64,000 nucleotides of DNA from an uncultured Acidobacteriaceae bacterium (GCA_963749985.1 CAVVOS010000006.1:429590-493589); one strand, 5' to 3'; shown: positions 23,655 through 63,916, numbered from the stretch's first letter. A program made the numbers and translations. The notes: a model not told the origin generated them from the letters alone.

Positions 23655-24410
23655 GTGAGACGCACACTCTTTCCCATCCCCTTTCCCGCTCTGTCACCCT
23701 GAGCGCAGCATAACGTCCACGAAGTGGACGTCATGCGCAGTCGAAGGATCCCTACCCCCCTACACCCCACCGTCGGCCTAGCAAGGCATTTCCACGACGT
23801 ATGCAGCGTAAAGCCTTCGGGTGCGCAGCTTCCAGCGCCGCGAACAACCCCACCCCCACCACAACCCCTGTCATTCCGACGCGCGAGCGCAGCGAGACAG
23901 AAGGAACCTGCTGTTGACTTTCGCATGCACCACTCCCCCGGCGTCATCCCGAGCGCAGCCGTTCTTCCGGCGGAGCGAGGGATCTCCCGCAAATCCTCAC
24001 CGCGCTCCTGTGGGACGCACACTCCTGTCCCTCGCCTTTGCCCCTTCTCTGTCATCCTGAGCGCAGCATAACGTCCACGAAGTGGACGTCATGCGCAGTC
24101 GAAGGATCCCTACCCCCTACACCCCACCGTCGGCCTAGCAAGGCATTTCCACCACGTATGCAGCGTAAAGCCTTCGGGTGCGCGGCTTCCAACGCTGCGA
24201 ACAACCCCACCCCCACCACCAACCCTTGTCATTCCGACGCGCGAGCGCAGCGAGACAGGAGGAACCTGCTGTTGACTCTTGCATGCGCCACTCCCCGGCG
24301 TCATCCCGAGCGCAGCCGTTCTTCAGGCGGAGCGAGGGATCTCCCGCAAATCCTCACCGCGCTCGTGTGAGACGGACACCCTCTCCGTCGCCTTTGACCC
24401 TGATTTGCTT
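23655..24410. repeat. 358-bp tandem duplication (~2.1 copies), each unit made of three GTCATYC-type REPs
   Basis: CTGTCA(C/T)CCTGAGCGCAGCATAACGTCCACGAAGTGGACGTCATGCGCAGTCGAAGGATCCCTACC starts at both 23691 and 24049 (period 358). The internal GTCATTCCGACGCGCGAGCGCAGCGAGACAG and GTCATCCCGAGCGCAGCCGTTCTTC modules are also repeated. Confidence 0.95.
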
Positions 24411-24594: not shown

Positions 24595-24629
24595 ACTTTG
24601 TGCCCACCCGAGTCGATCATTGCGCGTAA

Positions 24630-24737
24630 GGAAATCCGGGGACACAGAAATCCGGGGACAGACGGGACGTTCACCATTTTCTGGAGAGTTACCTCCTCAA
24701 CGTCACATCACAAATCCTCCACCTTCAACCGCGTATC
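24630..24737. repeat. GAAATCCGGGGACAG-headed element (copy 1)
   Basis: GGAAATCCGGGGACACAGAAATCCGGGGACAGACGGGACGTTCACCATTTTCTGGAGAGTTACCTCCTCAACGTCACATCACAAATCCTCCACCTTCAACCGCGTATC. The last ~75 bp are identical to 26367-26442. Confidence 0.95.
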
Positions 24738-25052
24738 CGCGTAACCGTCTCGCTGCAATGTGATGTGGGAAGAACCTTTGTGCGCCTTAGCAGACCATCC
24801 GATGCGCAACAAAGCTCGATAGCTTCGATGATCGGCTTTTCGTTGGAGTAACATCCGGCGTGCCCTGAGTTTCACGTCCAGCAAAGGCACGGATTCCGCT
24901 TTCCCCGACTGGATTTCCTCCATCCGGCGAGCGACTTCGTGCTGCCATGCCTCCTCAACGTCCAGATCAGGTTCGCCCTCATCCAGACTTTCGATCAGGT
25001 AGCCGCGCTTGTTTTCACCAATTTGGGAGCAAAGCAATTCGCGAATCCCCAA
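24708..25052 (-). pseudogene. In-frame remnant: addiction-module antitoxin-like segment fused to a HicA-like fragment, terminated inside a repeat
   Basis: YLIESLDEGEPDLDVEEAWQHEVARRMEEIQSGKAESVPLLDV parallels the antitoxin at 25960..26196. The following ...LLRIGWSAKAHKGSSHITLQRDGYA resembles the HicA N-terminal half. The last codons (TRLKVEDL*) come from repeat 24630..24737. Confidence 0.45.
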
Positions 25053-25220
25053 TTTGGTTTCGATGGCTACGTCACAGAGGGCCGCGTTTATTCTGATGTT
25101 GAGGAGTTCTTCACGAAGCTAAAAGATGCACTCGGAAAACATTATCCGAACGCGATCATCCCAACGCTCTTCAAGAACCTGAGCAAGTGTAAACACCTAT
25201 ACACCGTTGCGGCATGAACA

Positions 25221-25622
25221 CTAAGTCCTGCGGGGGATCCGGGGTGCCCCATTTCTCGCGTCCTTTGCGAGAAGTGGGCCACCGCTGCAACGTACTCGCT
25301 CCCCCACGCTCTTCCCCACATCCTCAAACTGATTAATCTCCACCGTCCCCTCCGGAAACCGCGCCGTGATCTTCAACTTTCCACCCATCGCTTTCACAAA
25401 ACTCTGCACCGTGCTCACATACATGTCCGCGCGCCGCTCCAGCTTTGACACTGCCGCCTGATTTACTCCCAGAATCTTCGCCAAGTGCACCTGAGTCATC
25501 TCCCGCGCCTCGCGCAGCATGTGCATCGGTAGCTCCGCCTGGTATTTCTCGTACAGAACACGAGAGCGCTCCAGCGATTCCGGCGACATCTTTGCTTCAA
25601 GCTCGCGAAAATTTCTGGCCAT
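25221..25622 (-). CDS. XRE-family HTH antitoxin-like regulator
   Basis: MARNFRELEAKMSPE...MTQVHLAKILGVNQAAVSKLERRADMYVSTVQSFVKAMGGKLKITARFPEGTVEINQF is typical of HigA-type antitoxins. The C-terminal ~25 aa read into the REP at 25239-25278. Confidence 0.8.
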   Translation of the reverse strand: MARNFRELEAKMSPESLERSRVLYEKYQAELPMHMLREAREMTQVHLAKILGVNQAAVSKLERRADMYVSTVQSFVKAMGGKLKITARFPEGTVEINQFEDVGKSVGERVRCSGGPLLAKDARNGAPRIPRRT

Positions 25623-25656
25623 CTCTTCCTCTGGTTAATGTCGCTCCGAAAGCCGA

Positions 25657-25956
25657 TTACGCGCGGTCCATCCAATACCCCGGCCTGCGACGCCCATGTG
25701 CCACCGCCAGCACGAACGTCCTCGAAGCTTCTACACGGTACACGAGGCTGAAGGGAAACTGATGCAGCGTATATCGGCGAAAGTGAGATAAGTAAACAGG
25801 CCAGCGTTCAGGCGCATCCTCCACAACGTGGATTGCTTGCCAAAAGGCGCTGTCGAATTTCTCCGCCGTAGAGAAGTTCCGGTCTCGATACCAAGCCAGC
25901 GATTTCAGGTAATCTTCTTCCGCACCGGGATGAAGCTCCAGCGGCTTGACTGGCAT
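25657..25956 (-). CDS. ParE/RelE-family type II toxin
   Basis: 99 aa. ...AEEDYLKSLAWYRDRNFSTAEKF...HFRRYTLHQFPFSLVYRVEASRTFVLAVAHGRRRP fits the ParE_toxin pattern. The start is 4 nt after the upstream antitoxin stop. Confidence 0.8.
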   Translation of the reverse strand: MPVKPLELHPGAEEDYLKSLAWYRDRNFSTAEKFDSAFWQAIHVVEDAPERWPVYLSHFRRYTLHQFPFSLVYRVEASRTFVLAVAHGRRRPGYWMDRA

Positions 25957-25959
25957 CGA

Positions 25960-26196
25960 TTACTTCCCGTGCAACAGCGCCCGCCCCTTGCGCTGGACCT
26001 CGCGCCACGGAATGGTCTTGACCTTGCCCGAGCGAATCTCATCCATGCGGCGGGCAACTTCCTGCTGCCAGGCTACCTCGGCATCCTCATCCACGGACTC
26101 ATCCAGACTATCGATCAGAGAACAAGCGAGCTCAGCCCGAGCTTCAAGAGGAAGCGTCATGGCTTTCTGCAGCAATTCGTCGGTTTCCGGAGACAT
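25960..26196 (-). CDS. Addiction-module antitoxin (TIGR02574-like)
   Basis: 78 aa. ELLQKAMTLPLEARAELACSLIDSLDESVDEDAEVAWQQEVARRMDEIRSGKVKTIPWREV. Confidence 0.8.
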   Translation of the reverse strand: MSPETDELLQKAMTLPLEARAELACSLIDSLDESVDEDAEVAWQQEVARRMDEIRSGKVKTIPWREVQRKGRALLHGK

Positions 26197-26275: not shown

Positions 26276-26442
26276 GGGAAATCCGGGGACAGGGAAATCC
26301 GGAAATCCGGGGACAGGAAATCCGGGGACAGACAGGAAATCCGGGGACAAGGAAATCCGGGGACAGACGGGACGTTCACCATTTTCTGGAGAGTTACCTC
26401 CTCAACGTCACATCACAAATCCTCCACCTTCAACCGCGTATC
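26276..26442. repeat. GAAATCCGGGGACAG-headed element (copy 2, expanded head)
   Basis: 5-6 tandem GAAATCCGG(GGACAG) units (26276-26366), then the same ~75-bp tail as copy 1. Confidence 0.95.
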
Positions 26443-53644: not shown

Positions 53645-56600
53645 TTAGTGCGCCGGAGTTGGGACCGGCGGCTTGATTTGCATGGCAGGGTCGCCGAGCA
53701 GATTGTAGGTTTTGCGGACACCGAGATCGGTGATGCCCGATTTCGCTTTAAGGATCGCATCTCCGAGAGCTGGCTGAGGCGAAGACATTGCGCTTTGCAC
53801 GACTAACTTGTCGAGAAGCGTCTGCGGCGGTGCCTGATTGAGGCCGCTCGAAGATAAGACCGCGACCGCGCCTCCGTTGGGGGCGAGCATGAGCGTGACG
53901 GCCAGAGGCTCGTCGTACACGTCCTGGAAGAAACCGTTGAGGCAATCCATGATGAGGAAGACCGGCAAGGAAGATCCGTTGGTCAACGAATTTGCGGCTG
54001 TGTTGTCGAAGAGATCGTCTCCCGACCATTCCTCTTCGGAGCCGTGTCCCGCATAGTTCACCAGCAGTTGCCCGGAGTTGATAGCCGCCAGGATGTCCTG
54101 CTGGGCTTGAGGTATGGTCATGGTGCTGGCGAAAACATCCGTCACCTGCATGGCAGGGGGCAGTTGCGCCTGCACGATCTGGCTGTCTTTCGTAAAGTTT
54201 TCAGTATCGTTTACGTCCGCCACCATGAGGGCCTGCAAGGTCCAGGGACCGTTCGTGGATTGGCCTTCATAGGTGGCCACTTTGCCGGCCACGAGTTGGG
54301 CTTCGGCAACGGTGCTCACGGGGAAGCGTCCGGTTGCGATTGTGGGCAAGCCACTGTCCTTGAAGTCCGAGAACCAGTCGTCGGAGGCCGTCATGAGCAT
54401 GGTTGTGGGCACGATCTTGGTCGGCACGAAATCGAGGTGGCCGAAACCGAGGTAGTTGCGCGGGTCAAGCGAGGCGCGGCCATTGAGTAACAGGTATCGA
54501 GGCGCGGTATGCCAGACGTTGACCGCGGTCTGCAGGAAGTCGCGGATGGCGAACGGGCTGTGCTGGCCGAAAGTAAACTCATCATACAAGTCGTCGATCA
54601 GTATGACAGCGGTTGATTTGCCTTCTTTCTGGTGCGCGTGAAGTACCGGCACCAGAGCGGCCGCGAAGGCCTCAGGCGTTAGCATGACGATCTCACTGCC
54701 GGGCTGAGGGCTGTGCCATTGCGACGGGTGGTTCTGACGAACTCCCGCCGCGGCAGCGACCCGATCCGCCGCCAAAGCCAGAAGCGTGTGGCGAGCTGGG
54801 GCCGCTTGATTCGAGGTTGACCAGGGTACCTGCACCGCAAGTTCGTACTGACTTGGGTTGGAAGTAGCATCGGATGCGATCTGAGGCGTGAGCGCCACCG
54901 GCTGATCCGGGTTCGTGATATCCAACACGGCAACTGGAGCGGAAGTGAAGCCTGCAACTTTCAGTTCTTCCCCAGGGCGTCCGGTGAAAACCAAGCAGTC
55001 GGAATCCGCCACGTAGGAGTGGGGATAAGTGATCCGGATCGACTGCACCAGACTCGTATCGTATTCTCCATTTTGAGCTGTGAAGGTGACGGTGTTATCT
55101 CCCTCCTGTAATGAGCCAGCCGGGAGAGACATACGGAGCCTGCCCTTGCCTTGCCCTGTGAAGGTGATATCGCCGAGGGTCGCGCCGTTCAGCGCAACAG
55201 TGACATCATGGGGGACGGCGAGGATGATTCCTTGCAGAATCACTTCCAGCTGCGCCGGTTCCGCAGCGGCCGTGGCGAGGTGGGACACTTGCAAGACCTC
55301 ATCGACAGACGTGGTGGAGACGATCGGTCCGAAGAAATTGTTTCCGTTGGAAGTGATGAGCGCGGAGAAGTATGTGGTATGGGGCGTGAGTTCTACGGTG
55401 AAGGGGAAGCTTGCCGGAGGCTGGTTCGATCCGGTTGATGGGGGCAGTTGCTGAATTCGCGCGCCCTGCGATTCGCCCACAGCAAGCCAGTAAACTCTGG
55501 TGCCGGAATACGGAGTGTCGATGGGAGTGCCGTAGAAATTAATCGCAGCCTGAGGTCCGAAACCTCCGGGGCCAGCGGATGCGCCGGTGATTTCCATGGG
55601 CTGTTCGATGGCTTCGGCATAAAGATGGAGCAGAGCGGGGTCCACATTTGGGTTCAATCCGGCTGCGATCAGATCCGGCTGGGTCACTTGGTACCAGCCT
55701 TCTTGCTTCACGAAGATCTTCACTGCGGGATTGGCTGCCAGTTCGAATTGTTTCTGATGTTGGATGAGTGTGGGCGGCGTAGCCTGCAAAACGTTTTCGA
55801 GGGGATGGCTAGCCTCGCTAGAGGCTGAGGCAGGCTGCGCCTGATTCAGTTGATTCAACATCAATGCCGCCGCGGGAGTCGCGTCTCCGGCGGATGGCGA
55901 ACTCGTGGCAGCTTCGGCCGGCACCGGCCCATGCAGGGTGCGAGTGCCGTTGGTATCCACATCTTCGAGCCAGTACGAGCCGCCTGCGCCCGGGGACGAA
56001 TCAATCCAGGAGTAAGTCTTGGCGGAGTGTTTCGGCAAGGTTCCGCGCATCAGCAGGGCCGATCCGGCAATCAGCGAAGGATTCAGTTGGACGCGTTGGC
56101 CGTTCTGCTCACGGTAAACGTTGAATCCGAGATTGTGCGCTTCGCCGCCCGTCTTCCAGAAAAGTACAACGCGGTCGGAGCCGGTCTTGTCTTTGCTGCG
56201 CTGGGCAGCGAGAAACTGGAGGCCGATCTTCGTTGCAGCCGTAATGGTTTCAGTTTGGGTGGAGGAATTATTCGCGAGGTTCGGGTCTGTCTGGTCTGCA
56301 CTCACCGTGGCGGTATTGGAAGCCGAGCCTGGCGCTCCCGCAAGCGTGAGGATCGTGACCGTGGCCGTGGCCGCGTTCGCCATGGTTCCCAACAGGCAGG
56401 TGACAGTACCGCCCGCCTCCGAACAGGTGCCCACCGTGGTGTTTACCGAAAGATAGGTGACATCGGAGGGCAACACGTCCGTGACCGTCACATTCGTCGC
56501 GCTGGCAGGACCGTTATTGGTGACCGCGAGGCTGTAGGTGAGAGTGTCGCCGTCGGATACAGTGGGGCTTGGAGTCGCGGTCTTCACGATCGCCATGTCG

Positions 56601-59600
56601 GCACTATTCGCGTTAGCGACGACAACCATAGCGGTCGCGCTGTTGCTGGTCAGGTTCGGAACGATGTTGGTTGCGGTGGCAGTGGCGGTCTCTGCAATGT
56701 TTGTTCCGGAGGCGGTGCCCGCGTTGACTTGAAGTACCAAGGTAAAGGGCGCGGTGGCATTCACGGCCATGCTGGCATTCGTGCAAGTGATGGTGCCGGC
56801 GGCTCCTACGGCTGGCGTAGTGCATGTCCACCCGGCCGCTGGAGTGATGGACTGGAAGTTGGTATTGGGAGGCGTGGTTTGAGTGAAGCTGGTTGCGGTT
56901 GCCGCCGCGGGGCCGTTGTTGGTCACGCTCTGGGTGTAGGTGACGTTACTGCCTGCCGCGACGGAGGACGGCGCGGCGGTGTTGGTGGTGATTAAGTCGG
57001 CCTGGGTGGCGGTCGCGACCACGTCGTTGGCGGTTGCGGTGTTGTTGCCTGGATTAGGGTCGGTCGTTGCGGAACTTACGGTTGCGATATCGTTGATCGC
57101 CGTGCCCGCCGCGGTTCCCGCGTTAACTTTCACGACCACAGTGAAACTGGCGGTTCCGGCGGCGACGCTGGGGTCGGTGCAGGTGATGCTCCCGGTACCG
57201 CCAACAATGGGCGTGGTGCACGACCATCCGGCAGGATTGACGATGGATTGGAACGTGGTGTTCGGCGGCGTGTTCTGGGTAAAGCTTGCGGTGGTGGCCG
57301 TGCTCGGACCGGCGTTCGTTACGACCTGGGTGTAGGTGATGTTATTGCCGGCGATCACTGGAACCGGGCTAGCCGCATTGGTAACGGACAGATCAGCCGA
57401 GTCCGCCACAATTACACTAGCGGTCGCGGTATTGTTGTTGGGGTTGGGGTCAACCGTGGGAGCAGCACTAACGGAATCTGTGTCGGTGATGGTTGACCCG
57501 GCGGCTGCCGTTGAGCTCACGGCCACCACGAAAGTGAAAGTAGCGCTGGTGTGGGCGGCGAGGCTCGCGATGCTGCAAACGTAAAATGGCGAATTGAAGG
57601 CGCAGGTCCATCCCGCCGGTCCGGTCAGCGAAACATAGGTTGTATTTGCGGGAGGCTGATCAAATAACGCGACCACCGTTCCCCCCGCGGTGGCGGGCCC
57701 GTTGTTGGTCACGACCTGGGTGTAAGTGATGTTCTGGCCGGCGTTCACGGGGTTCGGGCTGGCTGAGTTGGTGACACTCAGATCAGCTTCGGTGGCTGAT
57801 GCCACAGCAATATTAACCGTGGCAGAGTTGTTGTTCTGATTCGTGTCGCGAGTGGTCGTGGTCACGGTGTCGGTATCGGTGATGATGGTTCCCGCCGCAG
57901 TACCTGCATTCACCGTCACGACCACGGTAAAGGTGCTGATCGAACCGGGTGCCACACTTGGATTGGTGCAGCCGGCGGCGAAGGAAGTACAAGTCCATCC
58001 CGGCGGAGGCCCGCTATACGAACTGAAGGTTGTATTGGCGGGAATGGCTTCGTTGAAGGCGACGGTGCTGCAGTTGCTGGGGCCGTTGTTGGTTACAACC
58101 TGCGTATAAGTAATATTGCCGCCGGCGGCGACTGGACTGGGCGTACCGCTGTTGGTCACCGCGAGGTCGCAAGCCGTGGCGACAGTCGTGTTGACGGTTG
58201 TGCTGTTATTGGCCAAGTTAGGATCGCTGGTCGCGGAAGAGACTGACGAATTGGCTGTGATGGTCGCGACGGTCACCGAGGGCGCGACATTGACGACAAC
58301 GATGATGTCAGCCGACGCACCCGCCGCCAAGCTGGGATCGGTACAGATCACGGAAGTCGTCGTCGTGCAAGACCACCCGACCGGGGCCGAAACGGAAACG
58401 AACGTGGTATTGGCGGGAATCGCCTCGGTGAAGGTGGCTGTGGTGGCTGCCGCGGGACCATTGTTCGTCACCGTCTGGGTGTAGGTGATGTCATTGCCTG
58501 CAAAAACCGAGAGGGGAGTAGCCGCCGTGCTCAGTGCAAGATCGGCTTGCCCCGCGGTGGCGACGACATCGGTCGCCACGGCGGAATTGCTGCCGAAAGC
58601 CTGGTTCGTAGCATTGACTGTGGCCAGATCGGTGATGATGGTTCCGCCAGCCGTGCCCGCGTTCACCGTATAGATGGCGGTAAATGTTCCCGTGGAGCCG
58701 GCCGCGACGCTGGGGTTGGAGCAACTCACGGGCGGTGCCGAGCAAGTCCAACCGGCTGCGGCCGCGATCGACACGAACGTCGTATTGGTTGGCGTAGCCT
58801 CCGTAAAGGTGGCGCCCGTAGCCGCGACCGATCCCGTGTTGGTGACCACTTGTGTGTAGGTAATGTGGGTCCCGGCTACGACTGGATTCGGTGACGCGGC
58901 GTTGGTTACCGTCAACTCCGCGCCGGCGGTTGTACCAACCACGGTAGACGCGGAGGCGGTATTGTTGGCCGCGTTGGGATCGCTCACCGACGAACTCACG
59001 GTGGCAGTGCCGGTGATCACCGTGCCGTTTGCGGTTCCTGTATTCACCTTTACGACCATGGAGAAGGTGGCTGCGGTGCTTCCCGGCATGTTCAGGTCGG
59101 TGCAGACTACATTGCCAGTGCCGCCGCTGGGAGGTGCAACGCAAGTCCAGCCCGCGGGGGCGGATACGGAAACGAAGGTCGTGTTCGGCGGGACCGCCTC
59201 GACCAGGGTAGCGTTGTCGGCGGCACTGGGACCGTTATTGGTGACAAGCTGCGTGTAAGTGATGTTGCTGCCTGCAGTGACTGGGTTTGGTGACGCTGCG
59301 TTGGTCACGCTCAGGTCTGCACTGGATACGACGTTGGCTACGTTGGTGGCGGTGTCGTTCGAGAGGTTGACCTCGCCTCCGCCGCTGACGGTGGCCGTGT
59401 TGGTTACGGTCGAAGGAGCGGTCTGGGCGACGTTGGCGTTAATGGTGATCGAGGGATAACTGCTGTTCGCCGCCAACACGGTCGAATCGACACAACTCAC
59501 GGTTTGGGATGCGATCGAGCAAGACCATCCGGTACCGCTGGCACTAGTTGGAATCAGTCCCAGCGGCAAGGTATCGTTGACAGTGACCGTGCCGCTGCTG

Positions 59601-62600
59601 GATCCATACGGGCTGATGTTGGAGACCGGAATCGTATAGCTGGCGGTGGAACCGCGAGTGAAAATGCCAGCGGAGTTCTTGCTCAGCGTCATGTCGGGAG
59701 TACATTGCGCGCCTGACTGCGTGCCCGAGGTCTGAGCGATCGATGCATTGGTGACACTGGTGCCTGCGGCACCGGGGGTTGCGCCGTAGGGCACGCCAGG
59801 AGTTTCGGTCAGGCCATTAGTCCCGCCCGTCACACTAATACTCGCCGGAGTGCCGGAAACCAGCACAACACCGCCGCCACCACCGCCGCCGGGTCCGTGA
59901 CGGTTCGCCAAAGTGAAGGGTTCGATTTCCCATGCGTTGCCGCCGTTGCCACCATTTGCTTGCAGAGTCAAGCCGCCTTCACCGCCGTTGGCGGAAAGAA
60001 CGACGATGCTGCCACCGGCTCCACCACCGCCTCCGGCATCGTTGAGGGTCCCGTTATAGGCGTTAATGCCGTTGGCGGTGAGGGTCGCGGTGCCGCTGAG
60101 CGCGTAGGTGCGAATGATGATGATGCCGCCGCCGGTCGAGCCGCCGCTGGCTTGAAAGTCTCCGTCGGAATTGTTGCGCGTACCCGCGCCGCCGCCACCA
60201 CCCAGCGCGATGCGGTTGATGGTTGCGGGAAAAGCAACGCCGCCTTCGCCGCCCACACTCAAGTTGCTGTTCCAGGAGTCGCCGCCGAAGCCTCCAGCGC
60301 CGCCATTACCACCACCGCCGCCGCCTGCATTCTGATCATTGGCTGCGGGATCTCCGTCCGTGCCACCGGCTCCGGCGTTGCCCGGCGCGCCCCGTGCCAT
60401 GCTGCCATCAGTTCCCGCGGTACCGCTGGGATAACCGGTGGTGGTGTGCAAGAAAGTTACGCCGGACTCGACCCAGGAAGGAGTGCCCGCGATTCCTTCG
60501 CCTTTCGGGGCATCATAGCCAGCCGATCCTCCCACTGCCCCGGTGTAGGTGGCCGGAGCGGGTTGCCGATAATCTGTGTTGGCGCCAGCTCCGCCGGTTA
60601 ACTGCATGCCCGCGCCGCCACGGAAGCCCTGTCCGCTGACCGATACGGTTGCGCCGTTCAGAGTGAGGGTGCTCGAAGTATCGATGGCAAGAACTCCGCC
60701 GGTGGAACCATTCCAGGCGAGTGCCATCGGTGGCGTGGTTGCATCGAAAGTGGCCGTGGTGTACTGCGGCACCACAATGACCTGGTAGGCGCTTTGTCCC
60801 TTGGTTGCAGTAGCCGCGGCAGAGTCGTAGGCAAATACCAATCCGCCGCCGAGCCCTGCTCCTGAAACCGTAACCGTTCCTCCGCCGGTGCCCACGGCCG
60901 ATTGCGCAGTAACGAACTCGTAGTCTCCCGCGCTGTTTAGCGCGGTGAAACCCTGACCGGTGTAACCGTTGCCATAAGCGACGGTGTTTGAGTCGTTAAT
61001 GCTGGCATCCTGCATCTGGATCACCAGCAGAAGATTTCCGGCAGCGATTGCAGTTCCCGCGCCGGTTGCCGCACCCACGGGAATCGAGGTCGCTCCGGCC
61101 GCCACGCTCGCCGTTCCCGGATAGTAGGTGTTTAAAACGCCGGTCACGTTGTTGTTGGGCACCGCCTGGGACACGGTCGCGCAAGCGGCTGACTGCACGG
61201 TTGCGACCGCTGTGAACACGTTGTTGCCGGTGTTCAGATCGGGTGGTGTGCCGGAATCGGTAACGGTGGCGGTGTTCGCGTATGCGCCCGAGGCAGTAGC
61301 GGTTTCCACCACCGCGACGGTGGCGGTGGCTCCGCTGGCCAGGGTGCCTATGGTGCAAGTGATCGGGCCGGTGCCGGTGCAGGTCACGCCCGCGCTCGGA
61401 GTCACCGAGACCAGCGTCATCCCCGCGGCGAGAGCGTCGGACAACGAGACGGCATTCGCCGCGGAAGTTCCATTGTTGAAGACGGTGATGTTGTAAGTGG
61501 TGTTCTGCCCCAGAAAAACCGCGCTGCCCACGGTGGTAGTAACTCCGATGTCGGCCGCTGTGGGATTGATCGAAACGGCTCCGAGCGACCAGTTGGAGGT
61601 GCCACTGAAGGTCTCAGAAATCGGCACGGCAGGTGCGCCGGTACGACTGCTGCCCGAGGCGGTCACGTCCGGCGGAGAGACTCCAAAACCGGTCGTCACG
61701 TTCCACTGCTGCACCTGCGGTCCGGGGACGGTAACGTTTTGATCTCCACCTGTAGCCAGTGTGTCCAGAACCATGCCGTTGACGACGCTCGGCACATTGA
61801 GCTGGGTGTACGCCGCGGTTGCACCATCGGCGGATACGAATGAACCGAGGGGCACAGTCTGATCGACGCCCGTGAAAGTAGTGGCGCCGGCAACAATGCC
61901 CACAGTCTGCGCGACAGGGACGTTCACGGACACGATGATCTGATTCGTTCCGGACACCGGATTCAGCAGATACCACATCTCAACCCGGCGCGTGGCTCCG
62001 GCGTCATTGTGAGCGCCGATGAAACTCAGCGGCGTCCCGTTGTAGGTCACACCTACCACTCCCGTGGTAGGCGCGTTCGCGATATTTATAGAGACACCGA
62101 CGATCAGAAGGCGATTCGCCGTGGCGGTGGTCGTATGGTTGAACGTGACAGTAACCGTGCCAGCGCCGGTGCGCTCGTTGCTATGAGAAGTGGTCGCATC
62201 CACCGCGACCTGAGCGCGCAGATACGGCGCTGCCAGCAGAACGATCAGCAGACCCAAGGCTCCGAGGAGATTTGCCGCGCCGCGCATGGGGCGCGAGGTT
62301 TTGGCGCGCGCGGGACGATGGAGTCCCGTGGCGCGCAAGAGGTTGTTGGCGACCGATTGTCCGCGCGCCGCGCCACGCAATAACATGCCGCCGACTCCTC
62401 TTAGGTTGGTTCGCACGCTTCTTCGTCCCAGCCGAACTTCTTTAGCTACGGCCACGCCCAGAATCTGCTCGCCGCGCAGCGGAGGATCGTCCTGCTGGCC
62501 GCAATCACCGCGCGTGATGAAGACGTCTCTAGCGGCATCGGCTTTCACCAGACGATGCAGTCTGAACCCGTAATCGCCCTTCACTAGAACAATGTCGCCT

Positions 62601-62794
62601 CTGCGCAGGTGCACTTCAGCGGAGGGTCTGACATAAACCATCTCGCCATCGCGAATTGCGGGAGACATGCTGGCTCCGCGCGCCTGAAAGCGTACCCGCA
62701 GTCCGTGCTTCAGGCAGTCAAGGACGAAAGATTCGAACTGATTCGATTGCGGACGGTCTTCTCTTTCAAGATCAGTGCTCACAAGGTCATTCAC
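53645..62794 (-). CDS. Giant multidomain protein: S24/S26-type peptidase-like module, signal-anchor, DUF11 repeat array, Gly-rich region, C-terminal C25 (gingipain-like) cysteine peptidase
   Basis: One uninterrupted ORF (track 53645..62869, 3074 aa). Preferred start is GTG 62794, which overlaps the upstream gene's stop (GTGAATGA). Alternatives are ATG 62827, TTG 62869, or internal ATG 62287. Domain evidence is in the sub-features below. Confidence 0.85.
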   Translation of the reverse strand: MNDLVSTDLEREDRPQSNQFESFVLDCLKHGLRVRFQARGASMSPAIRDGEMVYVRPSAEVHLRRGDIVLVKGDYGFRLHRLVKADAARDVFITRGDCGQQDDPPLRGEQILGVAVAKEVRLGRRSVRTNLRGVGGMLLRGAARGQSVANNLLRATGLHRPARAKTSRPMRGAANLLGALGLLIVLLAAPYLRAQVAVDATTSHSNERTGAGTVTVTFNHTTTATANRLLIVGVSINIANAPTTGVVGVTYNGTPLSFIGAHNDAGATRRVEMWYLLNPVSGTNQIIVSVNVPVAQTVGIVAGATTFTGVDQTVPLGSFVSADGATAAYTQLNVPSVVNGMVLDTLATGGDQNVTVPGPQVQQWNVTTGFGVSPPDVTASGSSRTGAPAVPISETFSGTSNWSLGAVSINPTAADIGVTTTVGSAVFLGQNTTYNITVFNNGTSAANAVSLSDALAAGMTLVSVTPSAGVTCTGTGPITCTIGTLASGATATVAVVETATASGAYANTATVTDSGTPPDLNTGNNVFTAVATVQSAACATVSQAVPNNNVTGVLNTYYPGTASVAAGATSIPVGAATGAGTAIAAGNLLLVIQMQDASINDSNTVAYGNGYTGQGFTALNSAGDYEFVTAQSAVGTGGGTVTVSGAGLGGGLVFAYDSAAATATKGQSAYQVIVVPQYTTATFDATTPPMALAWNGSTGGVLAIDTSSTLTLNGATVSVSGQGFRGGAGMQLTGGAGANTDYRQPAPATYTGAVGGSAGYDAPKGEGIAGTPSWVESGVTFLHTTTGYPSGTAGTDGSMARGAPGNAGAGGTDGDPAANDQNAGGGGGGNGGAGGFGGDSWNSNLSVGGEGGVAFPATINRIALGGGGGAGTRNNSDGDFQASGGSTGGGIIIIRTYALSGTATLTANGINAYNGTLNDAGGGGGAGGSIVVLSANGGEGGLTLQANGGNGGNAWEIEPFTLANRHGPGGGGGGGVVLVSGTPASISVTGGTNGLTETPGVPYGATPGAAGTSVTNASIAQTSGTQSGAQCTPDMTLSKNSAGIFTRGSTASYTIPVSNISPYGSSSGTVTVNDTLPLGLIPTSASGTGWSCSIASQTVSCVDSTVLAANSSYPSITINANVAQTAPSTVTNTATVSGGGEVNLSNDTATNVANVVSSADLSVTNAASPNPVTAGSNITYTQLVTNNGPSAADNATLVEAVPPNTTFVSVSAPAGWTCVAPPSGGTGNVVCTDLNMPGSTAATFSMVVKVNTGTANGTVITGTATVSSSVSDPNAANNTASASTVVGTTAGAELTVTNAASPNPVVAGTHITYTQVVTNTGSVAATGATFTEATPTNTTFVSIAAAAGWTCSAPPVSCSNPSVAAGSTGTFTAIYTVNAGTAGGTIITDLATVNATNQAFGSNSAVATDVVATAGQADLALSTAATPLSVFAGNDITYTQTVTNNGPAAATTATFTEAIPANTTFVSVSAPVGWSCTTTTSVICTDPSLAAGASADIIVVVNVAPSVTVATITANSSVSSATSDPNLANNSTTVNTTVATACDLAVTNSGTPSPVAAGGNITYTQVVTNNGPSNCSTVAFNEAIPANTTFSSYSGPPPGWTCTSFAAGCTNPSVAPGSISTFTVVVTVNAGTAAGTIITDTDTVTTTTRDTNQNNNSATVNIAVASATEADLSVTNSASPNPVNAGQNITYTQVVTNNGPATAGGTVVALFDQPPANTTYVSLTGPAGWTCAFNSPFYVCSIASLAAHTSATFTFVVAVSSTAAAGSTITDTDSVSAAPTVDPNPNNNTATASVIVADSADLSVTNAASPVPVIAGNNITYTQVVTNAGPSTATTASFTQNTPPNTTFQSIVNPAGWSCTTPIVGGTGSITCTDPSVAAGTASFTVVVKVNAGTAAGTAINDIATVSSATTDPNPGNNTATANDVVATATQADLITTNTAAPSSVAAGSNVTYTQSVTNNGPAAATATSFTQTTPPNTNFQSITPAAGWTCTTPAVGAAGTITCTNASMAVNATAPFTLVLQVNAGTASGTNIAETATATATNIVPNLTSNSATAMVVVANANSADMAIVKTATPSPTVSDGDTLTYSLAVTNNGPASATNVTVTDVLPSDVTYLSVNTTVGTCSEAGGTVTCLLGTMANAATATVTILTLAGAPGSASNTATVSADQTDPNLANNSSTQTETITAATKIGLQFLAAQRSKDKTGSDRVVLFWKTGGEAHNLGFNVYREQNGQRVQLNPSLIAGSALLMRGTLPKHSAKTYSWIDSSPGAGGSYWLEDVDTNGTRTLHGPVPAEAATSSPSAGDATPAAALMLNQLNQAQPASASSEASHPLENVLQATPPTLIQHQKQFELAANPAVKIFVKQEGWYQVTQPDLIAAGLNPNVDPALLHLYAEAIEQPMEITGASAGPGGFGPQAAINFYGTPIDTPYSGTRVYWLAVGESQGARIQQLPPSTGSNQPPASFPFTVELTPHTTYFSALITSNGNNFFGPIVSTTSVDEVLQVSHLATAAAEPAQLEVILQGIILAVPHDVTVALNGATLGDITFTGQGKGRLRMSLPAGSLQEGDNTVTFTAQNGEYDTSLVQSIRITYPHSYVADSDCLVFTGRPGEELKVAGFTSAPVAVLDITNPDQPVALTPQIASDATSNPSQYELAVQVPWSTSNQAAPARHTLLALAADRVAAAAGVRQNHPSQWHSPQPGSEIVMLTPEAFAAALVPVLHAHQKEGKSTAVILIDDLYDEFTFGQHSPFAIRDFLQTAVNVWHTAPRYLLLNGRASLDPRNYLGFGHLDFVPTKIVPTTMLMTASDDWFSDFKDSGLPTIATGRFPVSTVAEAQLVAGKVATYEGQSTNGPWTLQALMVADVNDTENFTKDSQIVQAQLPPAMQVTDVFASTMTIPQAQQDILAAINSGQLLVNYAGHGSEEEWSGDDLFDNTAANSLTNGSSLPVFLIMDCLNGFFQDVYDEPLAVTLMLAPNGGAVAVLSSSGLNQAPPQTLLDKLVVQSAMSSPQPALGDAILKAKSGITDLGVRKTYNLLGDPAMQIKPPVPTPAH
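53700..54700 (-). other. C25 peptidase-like domain of the giant protein
   Basis: TASDDWFSDF...ATGRFPV...LVNYAGHGSEEEWS (His codon 54044-54046) ... PVFLIMDCLNGFF (Cys codon 53942-53944): a gingipain-type His/Cys dyad in the expected order. Confidence 0.75.
56235..59715 (-). other. Array of ~9 DUF11 (conserved repeat domain) units
   Basis: Recurrent ADLSVTN.ASP.PV.AG.NITYTQ.VTNNGP..A...F......NTTF.S......W.C......C... modules, with a period of about 370-400 nt. Confidence 0.85.
59860..60640 (-). other. Glycine-rich region of the giant protein
   Basis: GQGFRGGAGMQLTGGAGANTDY...NAGGGGGGNGGAGGFGGDSW...ALGGGGGAGTRNN...DAGGGGGAGGSIVVLSANGGEGG...HGPGGGGGGGVVLVSG. Confidence 0.8.
61181..61553 (-). 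other. N-proximal single DUF11-like unit
   Basis: ADIGVTTTVGSAVFLGQNTTYNITVFNNGTSAANAVSLSDAL...TCTGTGPITCTIGTLASGATATV...DLNTGNNV. Confidence 0.7.
62210..62287 (-). other. Internal Met followed by signal-peptide/signal-anchor-like segment
   Basis: MRGAANLLGALGLLIVLLAAPYLRAQ|VAV (residues 195-220 of the track ORF). In frame with the upstream peptidase module, with no intervening stop. Confidence 0.8.
62435..62794 (-). other. S24/S26 (signal peptidase / LexA-like) peptidase module
   Basis: ARGASMSPAIRDGEMVYVRP (GxSMxP Ser motif) ... RRGDIVLV ... RLHRLVK (His where S26A/S24 enzymes carry the general-base Lys, as in SipW/Sec11-type S26B) ... ITRGDCGQQDDPPLRGEQILGVAV. Confidence 0.65.
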
Positions 62795-63734
62795 GGAAAT
62801 TGAGAACCCTCTCCACGGCGCGTTCATCCGGCTCGAAAGAATAGCGATAACAAGGAACGGAATCGGCAACTCGCTCCAGAAAACTCAAGGCGGAGTCAAT
62901 GTATTCGTGACGGTGAAATGGAACGAAGGCGCGAGCAAAAAGTTCGGCGACCACCTGGCTGCGGGTGAGGCGAGTGATCAGGTTGCCGTGGCCGTGTTCG
63001 AGAACGAAGATGCGGTGCAGCGGGGCGCGCTGCGGTAGAGCGAAACATCCCTCACCATGCCACGGAGTTCCGTACATGAAGACTTGGTTGTCGCTTTCAC
63101 GGACAATGATGCGGTCGTCGCTCAGGATTTCTACTTTGTGAAGAGAAGTCCACAGCCGCGCCGTCGTACTCTTCCCCGCCCCGGAGTGACCGACGAACAA
63201 GTTGGTCGCGCCGTCGGGGCCGACGATGCCGACACCATGTAATTCAATAGCCCGCTCTTGCGTGAGGCGGTGCATGATAAGGAGCTCGTCGAGGGGATAC
63301 TCCAGAGGAATGGCGGTGTCGCAACTCTCGAAACCTTCTCGACTTAGGAGCAACGAGGCGCGGCGGAATCGCTCATCGACCAGAAGCCGCTTATAGGAAG
63401 CACCGTCAAGACTCGCAACGCTGAAATCGAATTGAAATCCGGCACTCTTCTCGTACAAGCGCCAGACGCATCCCGAATCGAAAAGCTGGCGCTGCCGCGG
63501 CTTGGGAAGCCTATCGACCCATTTTACCTGGATGCTAATATCGCCCCTGCCGGACTCGATCCGAAACGGCTCCAGGGTTGGATCTAAATTGAGATCTGAA
63601 GCGTGGTCGCCAGCCACTTCTACCGTGACTCCACCCACATGGAAACCGGTGTAGCATGCCGCGCCAAAGGCTGGGGCACACGACACCGCAGGCGCTGAAT
63701 CGTCAACTATCGCGACCCCTAACCTAGCATTCAC
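62787..63734 (-). CDS. HPr kinase/phosphorylase C-terminal-domain-like P-loop protein (HprK-related kinase)
   Basis: ELHGVGIVGPDGATNLFVGHSGAGKSTTARLWTSLHKVEILSDDRIIV parallels the HprK/P P-loop and following DD motif. Start uncertain: GTG 63734 (8 nt after the peptide stop) or TTG 63818 (track). Confidence 0.7.
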   Translation of the reverse strand: MNARLGVAIVDDSAPAVSCAPAFGAACYTGFHVGGVTVEVAGDHASDLNLDPTLEPFRIESGRGDISIQVKWVDRLPKPRQRQLFDSGCVWRLYEKSAGFQFDFSVASLDGASYKRLLVDERFRRASLLLSREGFESCDTAIPLEYPLDELLIMHRLTQERAIELHGVGIVGPDGATNLFVGHSGAGKSTTARLWTSLHKVEILSDDRIIVRESDNQVFMYGTPWHGEGCFALPQRAPLHRIFVLEHGHGNLITRLTRSQVVAELFARAFVPFHRHEYIDSALSFLERVADSVPCYRYSFEPDERAVERVLNFRE

Positions 63735-63742
63735 GGGCGCCC

Positions 63743-63916
63743 CTATGACCCTGAGTTTGGGCAGGTTCCCAGCGGCATACAGCTGCCAACGGGACCGCCC
63801 GACCCGGAGACCTTGCAATGCCCGAGGACAGCCTCCTCGGGACGAAGACTGATCGTCGTCAGTTTCGGTGACGCATACTTTTTCTTGCCGTTGGCACGAT
63901 TCAGTTCGTGATCCAT
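63743..63916 (-). CDS. 57-aa candidate precursor peptide (YxxPxL leader motif, Gly/Ser/Cys-rich C-terminus)
   Basis: ATG 63916 with GAGGG 5 nt upstream. MDHELNRANGKKKYASPKLTTISLRPEEAVLGHCKVSGSGGPVGSCMPLGTCPNSGS*. Confidence 0.5.
   Translation of the reverse strand: MDHELNRANGKKKYASPKLTTISLRPEEAVLGHCKVSGSGGPVGSCMPLGTCPNSGS

Follow-up and report, generated by a model that had tools for sequence, protein, structure and literature searches.

The locus described here recalls several known systems. Signal peptidases of family S26B (Sec11/SPC18, SipW) use a Ser in an SM motif, a His in an HR motif, where the bacterial enzymes have Lys, and a GD...D motif. SynChlorMet, Haft's cassette (named here after NCBIfam and Pfam models), combines a radical SAM/SPASM enzyme, a PqqD protein and ScmC. 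PorU, the sortase of type IX secretion, and the gingipains share the catalytic His/Cys of family C25, and the CLIPPER-stalk fibrillar adhesins are large proteins with a signal peptide, a tandem stalk and a terminal non-repeat domain (bioRxiv 10.1101/2025.04.25.650565). Counterparts of these systems are found together at one locus of an uncultured Acidobacteriaceae bacterium, within a 64,000-nt stretch of DNA (GCA_963749985.1, CAVVOS010000006.1:429590-493589; hereafter the window). There, a giant gene on the minus strand (53645-62794) encodes an N-terminal S24/S26-like peptidase module, a hydrophobic segment, a long stalk of DUF11/CLIPPER units and a C-terminal C25 protease domain, and it closes a conserved peptide cassette. 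The giant gene is real and not an artefact, and its architecture is undescribed but widespread and assembled from known parts. In the reading that we favour, to which we assign a probability of roughly 0.5, the cassette peptidase would trim the leader of the peptide, and signal peptidase I would then free the exported protein.

Continuity, distribution and origin of the fused gene

An uninterrupted open reading frame (ORF) spans positions 53645-62869 (minus strand), with 3,074 stop-free codons counted from the first TTG. Its 5′ end offers three in-frame start codons, among them GTG 62794, which shares 8 nt (GTGAATGA) with the end of the upstream P-loop gene and its TGA stop. As this RTGAnTGA overlap of start and stop is kept in 58 related loci, GTG 62794 is the likely start, from which the gene (53645-62794) encodes 3,049 aa. 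This agrees with the initial annotation, made from the sequence of the window, which had described a single 9.2-kb ORF for a protein of ~3,050 aa and had considered the same GTG as a start that leaves no transmembrane helix ahead of the peptidase module; indeed, no hydrophobic segment precedes the latter. Residue numbers of the giant protein are counted below from the TTG start of the ORF, unless module numbering is stated. Exact look-ups of the protein with three alternative starts returned no match, and a promoter and terminator scan gave nothing above the shuffled background.

The interruption against which the initial annotation had cautioned, a stop or frameshift between the modules, was seen neither in the window nor in two independent assemblies. 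The Joint Genome Institute (JGI) metagenome contigs L091 and L092, which stem from the same population, are 98.75% identical to the window and match it across the junction with 2 gap openings over 11.6 kb and 0 over 7.1 kb, respectively. Two genes joined by an assembly or sequencing error could in principle mimic such a fusion, and long-read assemblies of close relatives (L001, L002, L003) do show the region as several gene calls. Their breaks, however, lie at differing, scattered positions, as indel errors of assembly would give, and more than 130 loci keep one frame. We therefore hold an artefact to be extremely improbable.

The same fusion was sought in other genomes and found repeatedly. 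A scan with the S24 module that used one genome per species returned 80 loci, labelled nearly all as Acidobacteriaceae, Candidatus Sulfotelmatobacter or Terriglobia. At 56 of these, a continuous ORF of >2,500 aa runs from the S24 module onward (typically 3,004-3,320 aa, mostly reaching the C25 end). In most of the others, the gene is cut off by the end of the contig or interrupted at scattered places in apparent long-read assemblies, probably through assembly frameshifts. An independent query, the domain that follows the hydrophobic segment (domain A, see below), retrieved 80 further loci from metagenomes. Among these are 77 continuous fusions and one split form; the remaining two lie too near a contig end to be judged. 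Overall, the continuous fusion is thus present in >130 loci from different projects. A profile search of 1.84 billion representative proteins extended the family to proteins of 2,112-2,335 aa (P0249, P0257, P0261), which carry the S24 module at their N-terminus with only ~40% identity in the module and show the order S24, signal, domain A, DUF11, Gly-rich segment, DUF11 and C25. The largest of them (P0261, 2,335 aa; L090 8001-15008) has domain A in two tandem copies, followed by no more than three CLIPPER units; hence, head and stalk length vary within the family. The view that all S24 homologues are small and standalone was considered and rejected: protein searches that listed none of >432 aa reflect a database artefact, as the analysis of the loci reveals the fusions.

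Among close relatives of the window, the giant is broken into 2-12 gene calls by scattered frameshifts in the European Nucleotide Archive (ENA) contigs L001-L003 (ERZ250394xx/ERZ250395xx), and in L001, gene calling divides the 99%-identical copy into products of 220 and 2,801 aa. Several S24 modules that are 59-78% identical to the acidobacterial ones stem from metagenome-assembled genomes (MAGs) labelled Dormiibacterota, Verrucomicrobiia, Candidatus Binatus or Binatia (L011, L041, L079, L034/L038, L066). These labels may reflect mis-binning rather than a true spread beyond the Acidobacteria.

A rare split state, in which the S24 gene has its own stop and a giant of the 2,930-aa class is encoded separately, was found in L084 (7 contigs), L087 and L167. 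A rough tree of the S24 module, built by neighbour joining, shows a distant clade that is fused throughout, whereas the split and the likewise rare giant-less forms (see below) are nested within fused clades. In addition, the N-terminal extension of the giant in L087 (10798-11035) and L167 (2981-3224) carries a decayed copy of the C-terminal third of an S24 module (EQILGLARAREVRLGR…RFRGVGFWLLRSAARAQY), which suggests that these two split forms arose by partial duplication of a fused ancestor. From the nesting and the S24 remnants, the fusion is probably ancestral within the acidobacterial clade.

The combination of an S24 module, a giant stalk and a C25 domain is described in no curated family or paper that was searched, in line with the initial annotation, which had not recognised it from any described family. 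Literature searches on SynChlorMet/ScmC, on cassettes with radical SAM, PqqD and HPr kinase, and on S24 proteins in modified-peptide pathways likewise returned nothing relevant to the architecture. Where related proteins bear a name in their source, this reads 'hypothetical protein', 'uncharacterized repeat protein' or 'S24/S26 family peptidase, partial'.

From the peptidase module to the C25 domain

The domain order given in the initial annotation required only small changes of boundaries. The N-terminal peptidase module (62345-62794, minus strand; ORF aa 26-175) is predicted to adopt the LexA/signal-peptidase fold of clan SF with a Ser/His(/Asp) active site. It contains the motifs GASMSP, LHRL and TRGDCGQQDD and ends in a conserved helix, GGxLLRxAARGQ. 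The Pfam model PF00717 (Peptidase_S24; cut-off 23.3) matches the N-terminal 210 aa alone with 25.9 bits and the full protein with 21.8 bits, and matches to PF00717 are precomputed for many homologues. Ser42, His80, Asp97 and Asp103 (module numbering) are invariant across 64 homologues. An AlphaFold2 (AF2) model built with these homologues reaches a predicted local confidence (pLDDT) of >90 over most of the catalytic core, and in a Foldseek search of the Protein Data Bank (PDB), its top 50 matches, nearly all at probability 1.00, are without exception LexA, UmuD, lambda CI, signal peptidase I, SEC11C or SipA. Taken together, the modelled fold and the Pfam score of the isolated scan place the module in clan SF, and the S24/S26-type assignment made at the outset is thereby supported.

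Within this clan, the module is less readily filed. The Ser/Lys dyad of family S24 in the sense of LexA and UmuD is not found: Ser is present, and an invariant His (LHRL) occupies the position of the base in all 64 homologues. LexA has 'KR' where the module has 'HR', a comparison made by motif and not by a computed alignment. With His instead of Lys as putative base, the module resembles the signal-peptidase subtype of the endoplasmic reticulum (ER) and archaea more than LexA. A profile of 20 homologues gave only a weak match to human SEC11C/SEC11A (E 0.048), yet the SM, HR and GD..D motifs were paired exactly, so that the Ser/His/Asp of S26B have aligned counterparts. The predicted target site, with small residues at −1 and −3, is a further likeness to the S26B enzymes. 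Unlike these, the module has no N-terminal anchor and its presumed substrate is the cassette peptide instead of a secretory signal; moreover, the score against TIGR02228 (28.4 bits) stays below the cut-off of 51.85. Since both the anchor and the curated score are missing, we do not file the module as a member of S26B. The absence of a signal sequence ahead of it leads to a predicted cytoplasmic location.

Another parallel is found in SipA, a signal-peptidase homologue that is not known to have catalytic residues and acts outside the membrane, whereas the S24 module retains Ser and His and is predicted to be cytoplasmic. In Gram-positive bacteria, pilus loci with SipA/LepA (PDB 4n31) bring together a similar cast, namely a protein of the signal-peptidase fold, stalk domains of the isopeptide-type Ig class and a cysteine transpeptidase or protease, although this is a resemblance only.

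Beyond the hydrophobic segment, which is treated below, the mature protein would begin with domain A (61556-62212, minus strand; ORF aa 220-438), a predicted all-beta domain of ~220 aa with a pLDDT of 92.4 in the AF2 model. It has no Pfam match, and a fold search against the PDB returned no significant match (best E 9e-3, TM ~0.2-0.3). The initial annotation had rightly noted such a domain, though with a somewhat smaller size of ~200 aa. It is followed by the first DUF11/CLIPPER unit (61190-61555, minus strand; aa 439-560), the single unit that had been placed here before, as confirmed by Pfam and by alignment of the units. Next comes a Gly-rich segment (59699-61189, minus strand; aa 561-1057) that resembles the N-terminal domain of AgmC, with 107 bits against NF047640 (cut-off 275 not reached). 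Its runs of Gly (G6, G5, G5 and G7, starting at aa 849, 890, 946 and 994) are those that had been described as extreme, with up to seven residues in a segment of ~500 aa.

The stalk proper is built from nine tandem DUF11/CLIPPER units (56225-59698, minus strand; aa 1058-2215), which start at aa 1058, 1184, 1317, 1442, 1567, 1695, 1825, 1957 and 2090 and were delimited by Pfam and unit alignment. PF01345 (DUF11) matches 10 stretches of the giant protein as tandem copies above the gathering score (512.9 bits in all, E 1e-156), and TIGR01451 contributes 219.6 bits. Both the array of about nine units and the ~500-aa linker behind it (aa 2216-2727) had been foreseen. Judged by the position in the unit, and not by alignment to a solved domain, Lys occupies the presumed first-strand position for an isopeptide in two of the 10 CLIPPER units (aa 1058 and 2090), and Asn or Thr is found there in the other eight. 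Most stalk units may therefore lack the isopeptide bond, as is known for some DUF11 domains (bioRxiv 10.1101/2025.04.25.650565). With its probable signal peptide, terminal non-repeat domain, tandem stalk and large size, the giant is built like the fibrillar adhesins with CLIPPER stalks; it differs from these in that its head is a protease domain, that it is fused to a cytoplasmic peptidase and that no sorting or anchoring domain was found.

The region ahead of the protease (54689-56224, minus strand; aa 2216-2727) is partly covered by PorU-type profiles. NF033707 (PorU) matches aa 2453-3069 with its positions 106-736 of 1,095 and a score of 218.4 bits (cut-off 420), and the best solved-structure match of the C-terminal 675 aa is PorU (PDB 6za2, E 3e-14). 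Peptidase_C25 itself (PF01364) covers 53678-54688 (minus strand; aa 2728-3064) with 240.8 bits against the giant protein, well above its gathering score of 23 (E 4e-71). In an alignment to gingipain R (RgpB, 1cvr), LVNYAGHGSEEEW pairs with LVNYTGHGSETAW and FLIMDCLNGFF with IFDVACVNGDF. Hence, the GHG and DC motifs, which the initial annotation had already pointed out as a dyad, correspond to a catalytic His and Cys that are both present in the sequence. GHGSE and DCLNG align to the catalytic His211 and Cys244 of gingipain R. By these alignments, the C-terminal domain is a true member of family C25 and PorU-like, but it is not PorU: the NCBIfam score is half the cut-off, a C-terminal sorting domain is missing, the host is acidobacterial and not a member of the Bacteroidota, and the domain forms the tip of a CLIPPER stalk. 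Genes for partners of PorU were not seen among the ORFs scanned in the 64 kb of the window. The giant protein ends ~10 aa after the C25 domain, with no further domain in the remaining residues.

The peptide cassette, the probable internal signal and their possible interplay

The giant gene is the last of a conserved module of five genes that encode a PqqD-like peptide-binding protein, a radical SAM enzyme, a Cys-containing peptide of ~57 aa, a P-loop protein and the giant itself. The window ends just upstream of the peptide gene, and the PqqD and radical SAM genes are known from relatives. The P-loop protein (62787-63734, minus strand; estimated GTG start, motif GHSGAGKST) is of a ScmC/HprK-related type, and its stop overlaps the start of the giant. 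All of its matches are weak (HprK_rel_B with 18 bits, AAA_33, and an HPr kinase in the PDB with E 0.16); gene calls in relatives carry a 'faint' match to PF27840 (ScmC), and searches against NCBIfam and the PDB gave nothing beyond P-loop similarity. Of the upstream 'kinase' in the initial annotation, the P-loop similarity thus stands, and the assignment as a kinase is weak. The P-loop gene also shows a length difference of ~30 nt between the window (63086-63094) and L091 (2160-2198), a place at which both JGI contigs, L091 and L092, differ from the window although they are otherwise 98.8-99.3% identical to it.

The precursor peptide (63743-63916, minus strand; 57 aa, MDHELNRANGKKKYASPKLTTISLRPEEAVLGHCKVSGSGGPVGSCMPLGTCPNSGS) is conserved in most of the 80 genome loci at which the correct frame was recovered, as was the case for about three-quarters of the distinct sequences. 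Common features are the motif ISLRPEEAVLGHCK, three Cys residues and an invariant C-terminal GS. The general pattern reads M..KKPYEPPxLxTISLRPEEAVLGHCK, followed by a Gly-rich variable part with two further Cys and the final GS. In relatives, the PqqD-family protein is matched by PF05402 (E 2e-16), and the best matches of the radical SAM enzyme are heme, mycofactocin and SPASM-type peptide maturases, all far under the cut-off. Downstream, DAHP synthase and nuoLMN converge on the giant gene, which therefore closes the unit. Upstream sequence is available for 78 metagenome loci, and wherever their contigs seem long enough, none of the cassette genes is missing. In L090, the five genes adjoin an isc operon and thus a different chromosomal neighbourhood, from which it follows that they travel together. 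That the giant gene forms one functional unit with the peptide and 'kinase' genes ahead of it, as the initial annotation had suggested, is borne out by this relocation, the synteny and the 8-nt overlap.

The gene set matches that of SynChlorMet cassettes, with their radical SAM/SPASM enzyme, PqqD protein and ScmC, and includes a short Cys-containing precursor. The radical SAM enzyme weakly matches the models for ScmE/ScmF and mycofactocin maturases. In the related locus L004, the SynChlorMet models all score below their cut-offs (ScmD 23 vs 100, ScmE 79 vs 400, ScmF 54 vs 400), and the P-loop protein of that locus has no match in NCBIfam. In contrast to SynChlorMet, this cassette adds the S24/S26-like peptidase, which is usually fused to a giant exported protein. 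Lasso-peptide clusters with a precursor kinase (paeninodin type) contain genes for an asparagine-synthetase-like lasso cyclase and a B2 cysteine protease. Neither was found in the related loci, where only PqqD, radical SAM, peptide, P-loop and S24 (or S24 fused to the giant) genes lie between unrelated flanks; the PqqD protein has a weak match to lasso_PqqD (39 vs 80).

Three loci carry the cassette with a standalone S24 gene and no giant. L089 contains the full cassette, and its S24 gene directly precedes the convergent DAHP synthase and nuo genes, i. e. the same chromosomal position as in the window. The short contig L034 shows the peptide, the P-loop gene and a standalone S24 gene, and the more distant L171 encodes PqqD, radical SAM, a 320-aa protein and a standalone S24 protein of 161 aa. 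Since S24 occurs alone in the same cassette, the module belongs first of all to the peptide cassette. Conversely, no giant without a cassette was found among the loci examined, and it thus seems to be the giant that depends on the cassette. No other protease was found among the cassette genes of related loci. The most likely function of the S24 module is therefore the removal of the leader from the cassette precursor. A candidate site is AVLG↓HCK (the arrow marks the cut), because the small residue at −1 and the small or aliphatic residue at −3 fit a signal-peptidase-type preference. A 2023 review of leader peptidases does not contain the terms S24, S26, signal peptidase or C25 (PMC10885120).

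How the two halves of the fusion may be related is best judged from the junction, a basic linker and a hydrophobic h-region ending in ...AAPYLRA↓QVAVD (62213-62344, minus strand; ORF aa 176-219). Fifty-seven fused proteins were aligned, and both anchoring motifs could be located in 55, to which the following numbers refer. All show the same order of S24 C-terminal helix (GGxLLRxAARGQ, also found in standalone S24 proteins), linker, uncharged stretch and cleavage-type site. From helix to site, 31-56 aa are passed in 20 different lengths, every one in frame. The charged part of the linker has a net charge of +2 to +11, and the uncharged stretch measures 13-24 aa with the c-region included and often carries Pro, Ser, Thr or Gly at its end. 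Of the 55 proteins, 49 have Ala and 5 have Gly at position −1, 54 have one of Ser, Leu, Ala, Val, Gly and Thr at position −3, and 54 have Gln at position +1, with QVAVD as the commonest start. The near-invariant Gln recalls the 'Q-rule' that has been described as specific for Bacteroidetes (PMC5837995), although as a parallel only. Loci in which the giant has a gene of its own, with the signal at its N-terminus, retain an identical c-region.

The topology predicted in the initial annotation, with the S24 module inside and the rest outside, fits the positive charge of the linker. Its 'signal-anchor', on the other hand, finds less support. The n-h-c layout, the conserved site for signal peptidase I and a hydrophobic part that is short for a stable helix make an internal cleavable Sec signal peptide the more likely interpretation, in which case the two proteases would probably not reside on one polypeptide. 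The opposite view is a permanent membrane protein with two proteases, in which an uncleaved anchor would hold the serine peptidase inside and ~2,850 aa with the C25 domain outside, and events outside would be coupled to peptide processing inside. A positive-inside linker with a single hydrophobic segment fits this arrangement as well. The in-frame fusion, which appears to be ancient, would be easier to explain if physical linkage mattered, and, as the giant stops just past C25, an N-terminal anchor would account for its retention by the cell. Yet, cleavable signals typically have an uncharged stretch as short as this, with Pro, Ser, Thr or Gly towards the end, the residues at −1 (Ala or Gly in 54 of 55) and −3 obey the rule of signal peptidase I with Gln nearly always at +1, and the split forms retain the same site, which makes the covalent linkage dispensable. 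We consider the permanently anchored form possible but unlikely.

The in-frame lengths also bear on the possibility that two proteins are made from one frame, with the giant starting mainly at an internal codon such as ATG 62386 and the continuity being a tolerated loss of a stop. This codon has a good Shine-Dalgarno-like sequence 8 nt upstream (AAGAGGAG), split forms demonstrate that the parts are workable as separate genes, and the giant tolerates long N-terminal extensions ahead of the hydrophobic region. The Met, however, lies inside the conserved GGxLLRxAARGQ helix, where relatives have I, R, A, S or W instead; ribosomes that translate S24 would read through anyway, as there is no stop; and the preservation of the frame in 20 linker lengths across deep divergence argues for selected continuity. 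The lack of a promoter-like site in 62.2-62.8 kb is a weaker point, as the scan covered sigma-70-type sites only. Internal initiation may occur, but by these sequence comparisons it cannot be the conserved design, and as the explanation of the locus it appears improbable. A separate surface-protein gene from ATG 62386 or 62287 was likewise rejected as the main interpretation, on the grounds of an unconserved Met within a conserved helix of the S24 family.

Alternatively, the module could act on its own chain. Self-cleaving LexA, UmuD and lambda CI are among its best fold matches, and the nearly invariant A-R-G-Q just past the catalytic domain resembles both V-L-G↓H of the peptide and x-x-A↓Q of the signal. 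A LexA-like cut, for example at AARG↓Q, might then release the giant or license its export, and the module would not be a processing enzyme for the cassette peptide. This regulatory scheme has to contend with standalone S24 proteins, which keep the A-R-G-Q motif with nothing downstream to release, and with a catalytic base that is His and not the Lys of LexA-type enzymes. Its probability seems low to us.

We thus return to the favoured reading, a cassette peptidase for the leader and a separately released exported protein. The internal segment, i. e. the basic linker, the short hydrophobic stretch and A↓QVAVD, would serve as a Sec signal peptide that brings the nascent chain to the membrane, so that the C-terminal ~2,855 aa could be translocated. 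Host signal peptidase I may then cut after Ala and separate the halves. The cassette peptidase would stay at the cytoplasmic face with the signal peptide as a hydrophobic tail, and the released protein would consist of the beta-sandwich head, CLIPPER units, Gly-rich segment, nine-unit stalk and C-terminal PorU/gingipain-like protease. The fusion could thereby function as a small polyprotein that fixes co-expression and membrane proximity of the halves. As for the exported protease, it might be involved in processing or attachment of the peptide, or else have other substrates in the envelope. A bolder variant would be an envelope-spanning machine for peptide maturation, in which one product supplies both a cytoplasmic leader peptidase, from a family that described modified-peptide pathways are not known to employ, and a stalked, extracytoplasmic PorU-like transpeptidase that processes, attaches or displays the radical-SAM-modified peptide, the halves being split by host signal peptidase. 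We regard this variant as rather unlikely.

Several points weigh against the favoured reading. The role as a leader peptidase is argued from gene context and from a motif that fits a general rule, and cleavage of the internal signal from sequence rules. Known S26B enzymes work at the outer face of the membrane with an N-terminal anchor, unlike the S24 module, which moreover stays below the TIGR02228 cut-off and exceeds that of Pfam only in the isolated scan. The five-gene module encodes no peptide exporter. The cassette occurs without the giant, which is thus dispensable for it, and the favoured reading does not account for the retention of the fusion. Finally, with an end ~10 aa past C25, there is no sorting domain to explain how a protein of ~2,850 aa would reach the surface of a cell with two membranes and stay there.

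Other features of the window and implications

Elsewhere in the window, the sole Rfam match is an Acido-Lenti-1 small RNA (RF01687; 12356-12402, minus strand), which scores 39.8 bits (gathering score 37) and is in keeping with an acidobacterial source of the DNA. ARAGORN detected no tRNA genes in the 64 kb. A unit of ~357 bp is present in two tandem copies that are 88-99% identical (23689-24380), and a 109-nt repeat occurs in two copies 1.7 kb apart with 98% identity (24629-24737 and 26334-26442). Both repeats sit in a 3-kb stretch without an ORF of ≥150 aa. A cluster of small ORFs on the minus strand (24708-26196), judged by eye, seems to comprise pairs of the toxin-antitoxin or addiction-module type and a helix-turn-helix protein (24708-25052, 25221-25622, 25657-25956 and 25960-26196).

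Because the gene is fragmented in long-read assemblies, annotation pipelines will under-report its architecture. Many genomes from peat, palsa and forest soils, assigned to uncultured Acidobacteriaceae or to Candidatus Sulfotelmatobacter, contain the module, and to such cells a protease-tipped protein of ~3,000 aa is a large investment. If the S24/S26-like module is indeed a leader peptidase, it would constitute a new protease family for the biosynthesis of modified peptides. We know of no documented case of an internal-signal polyprotein strategy in bacterial chromosomal genes; a conserved, internal and cleavable signal behind a folded cytoplasmic enzyme of ~150 aa, if true, would show that bacteria, too, naturally let signal peptidase process a precursor in the manner of a polyprotein.

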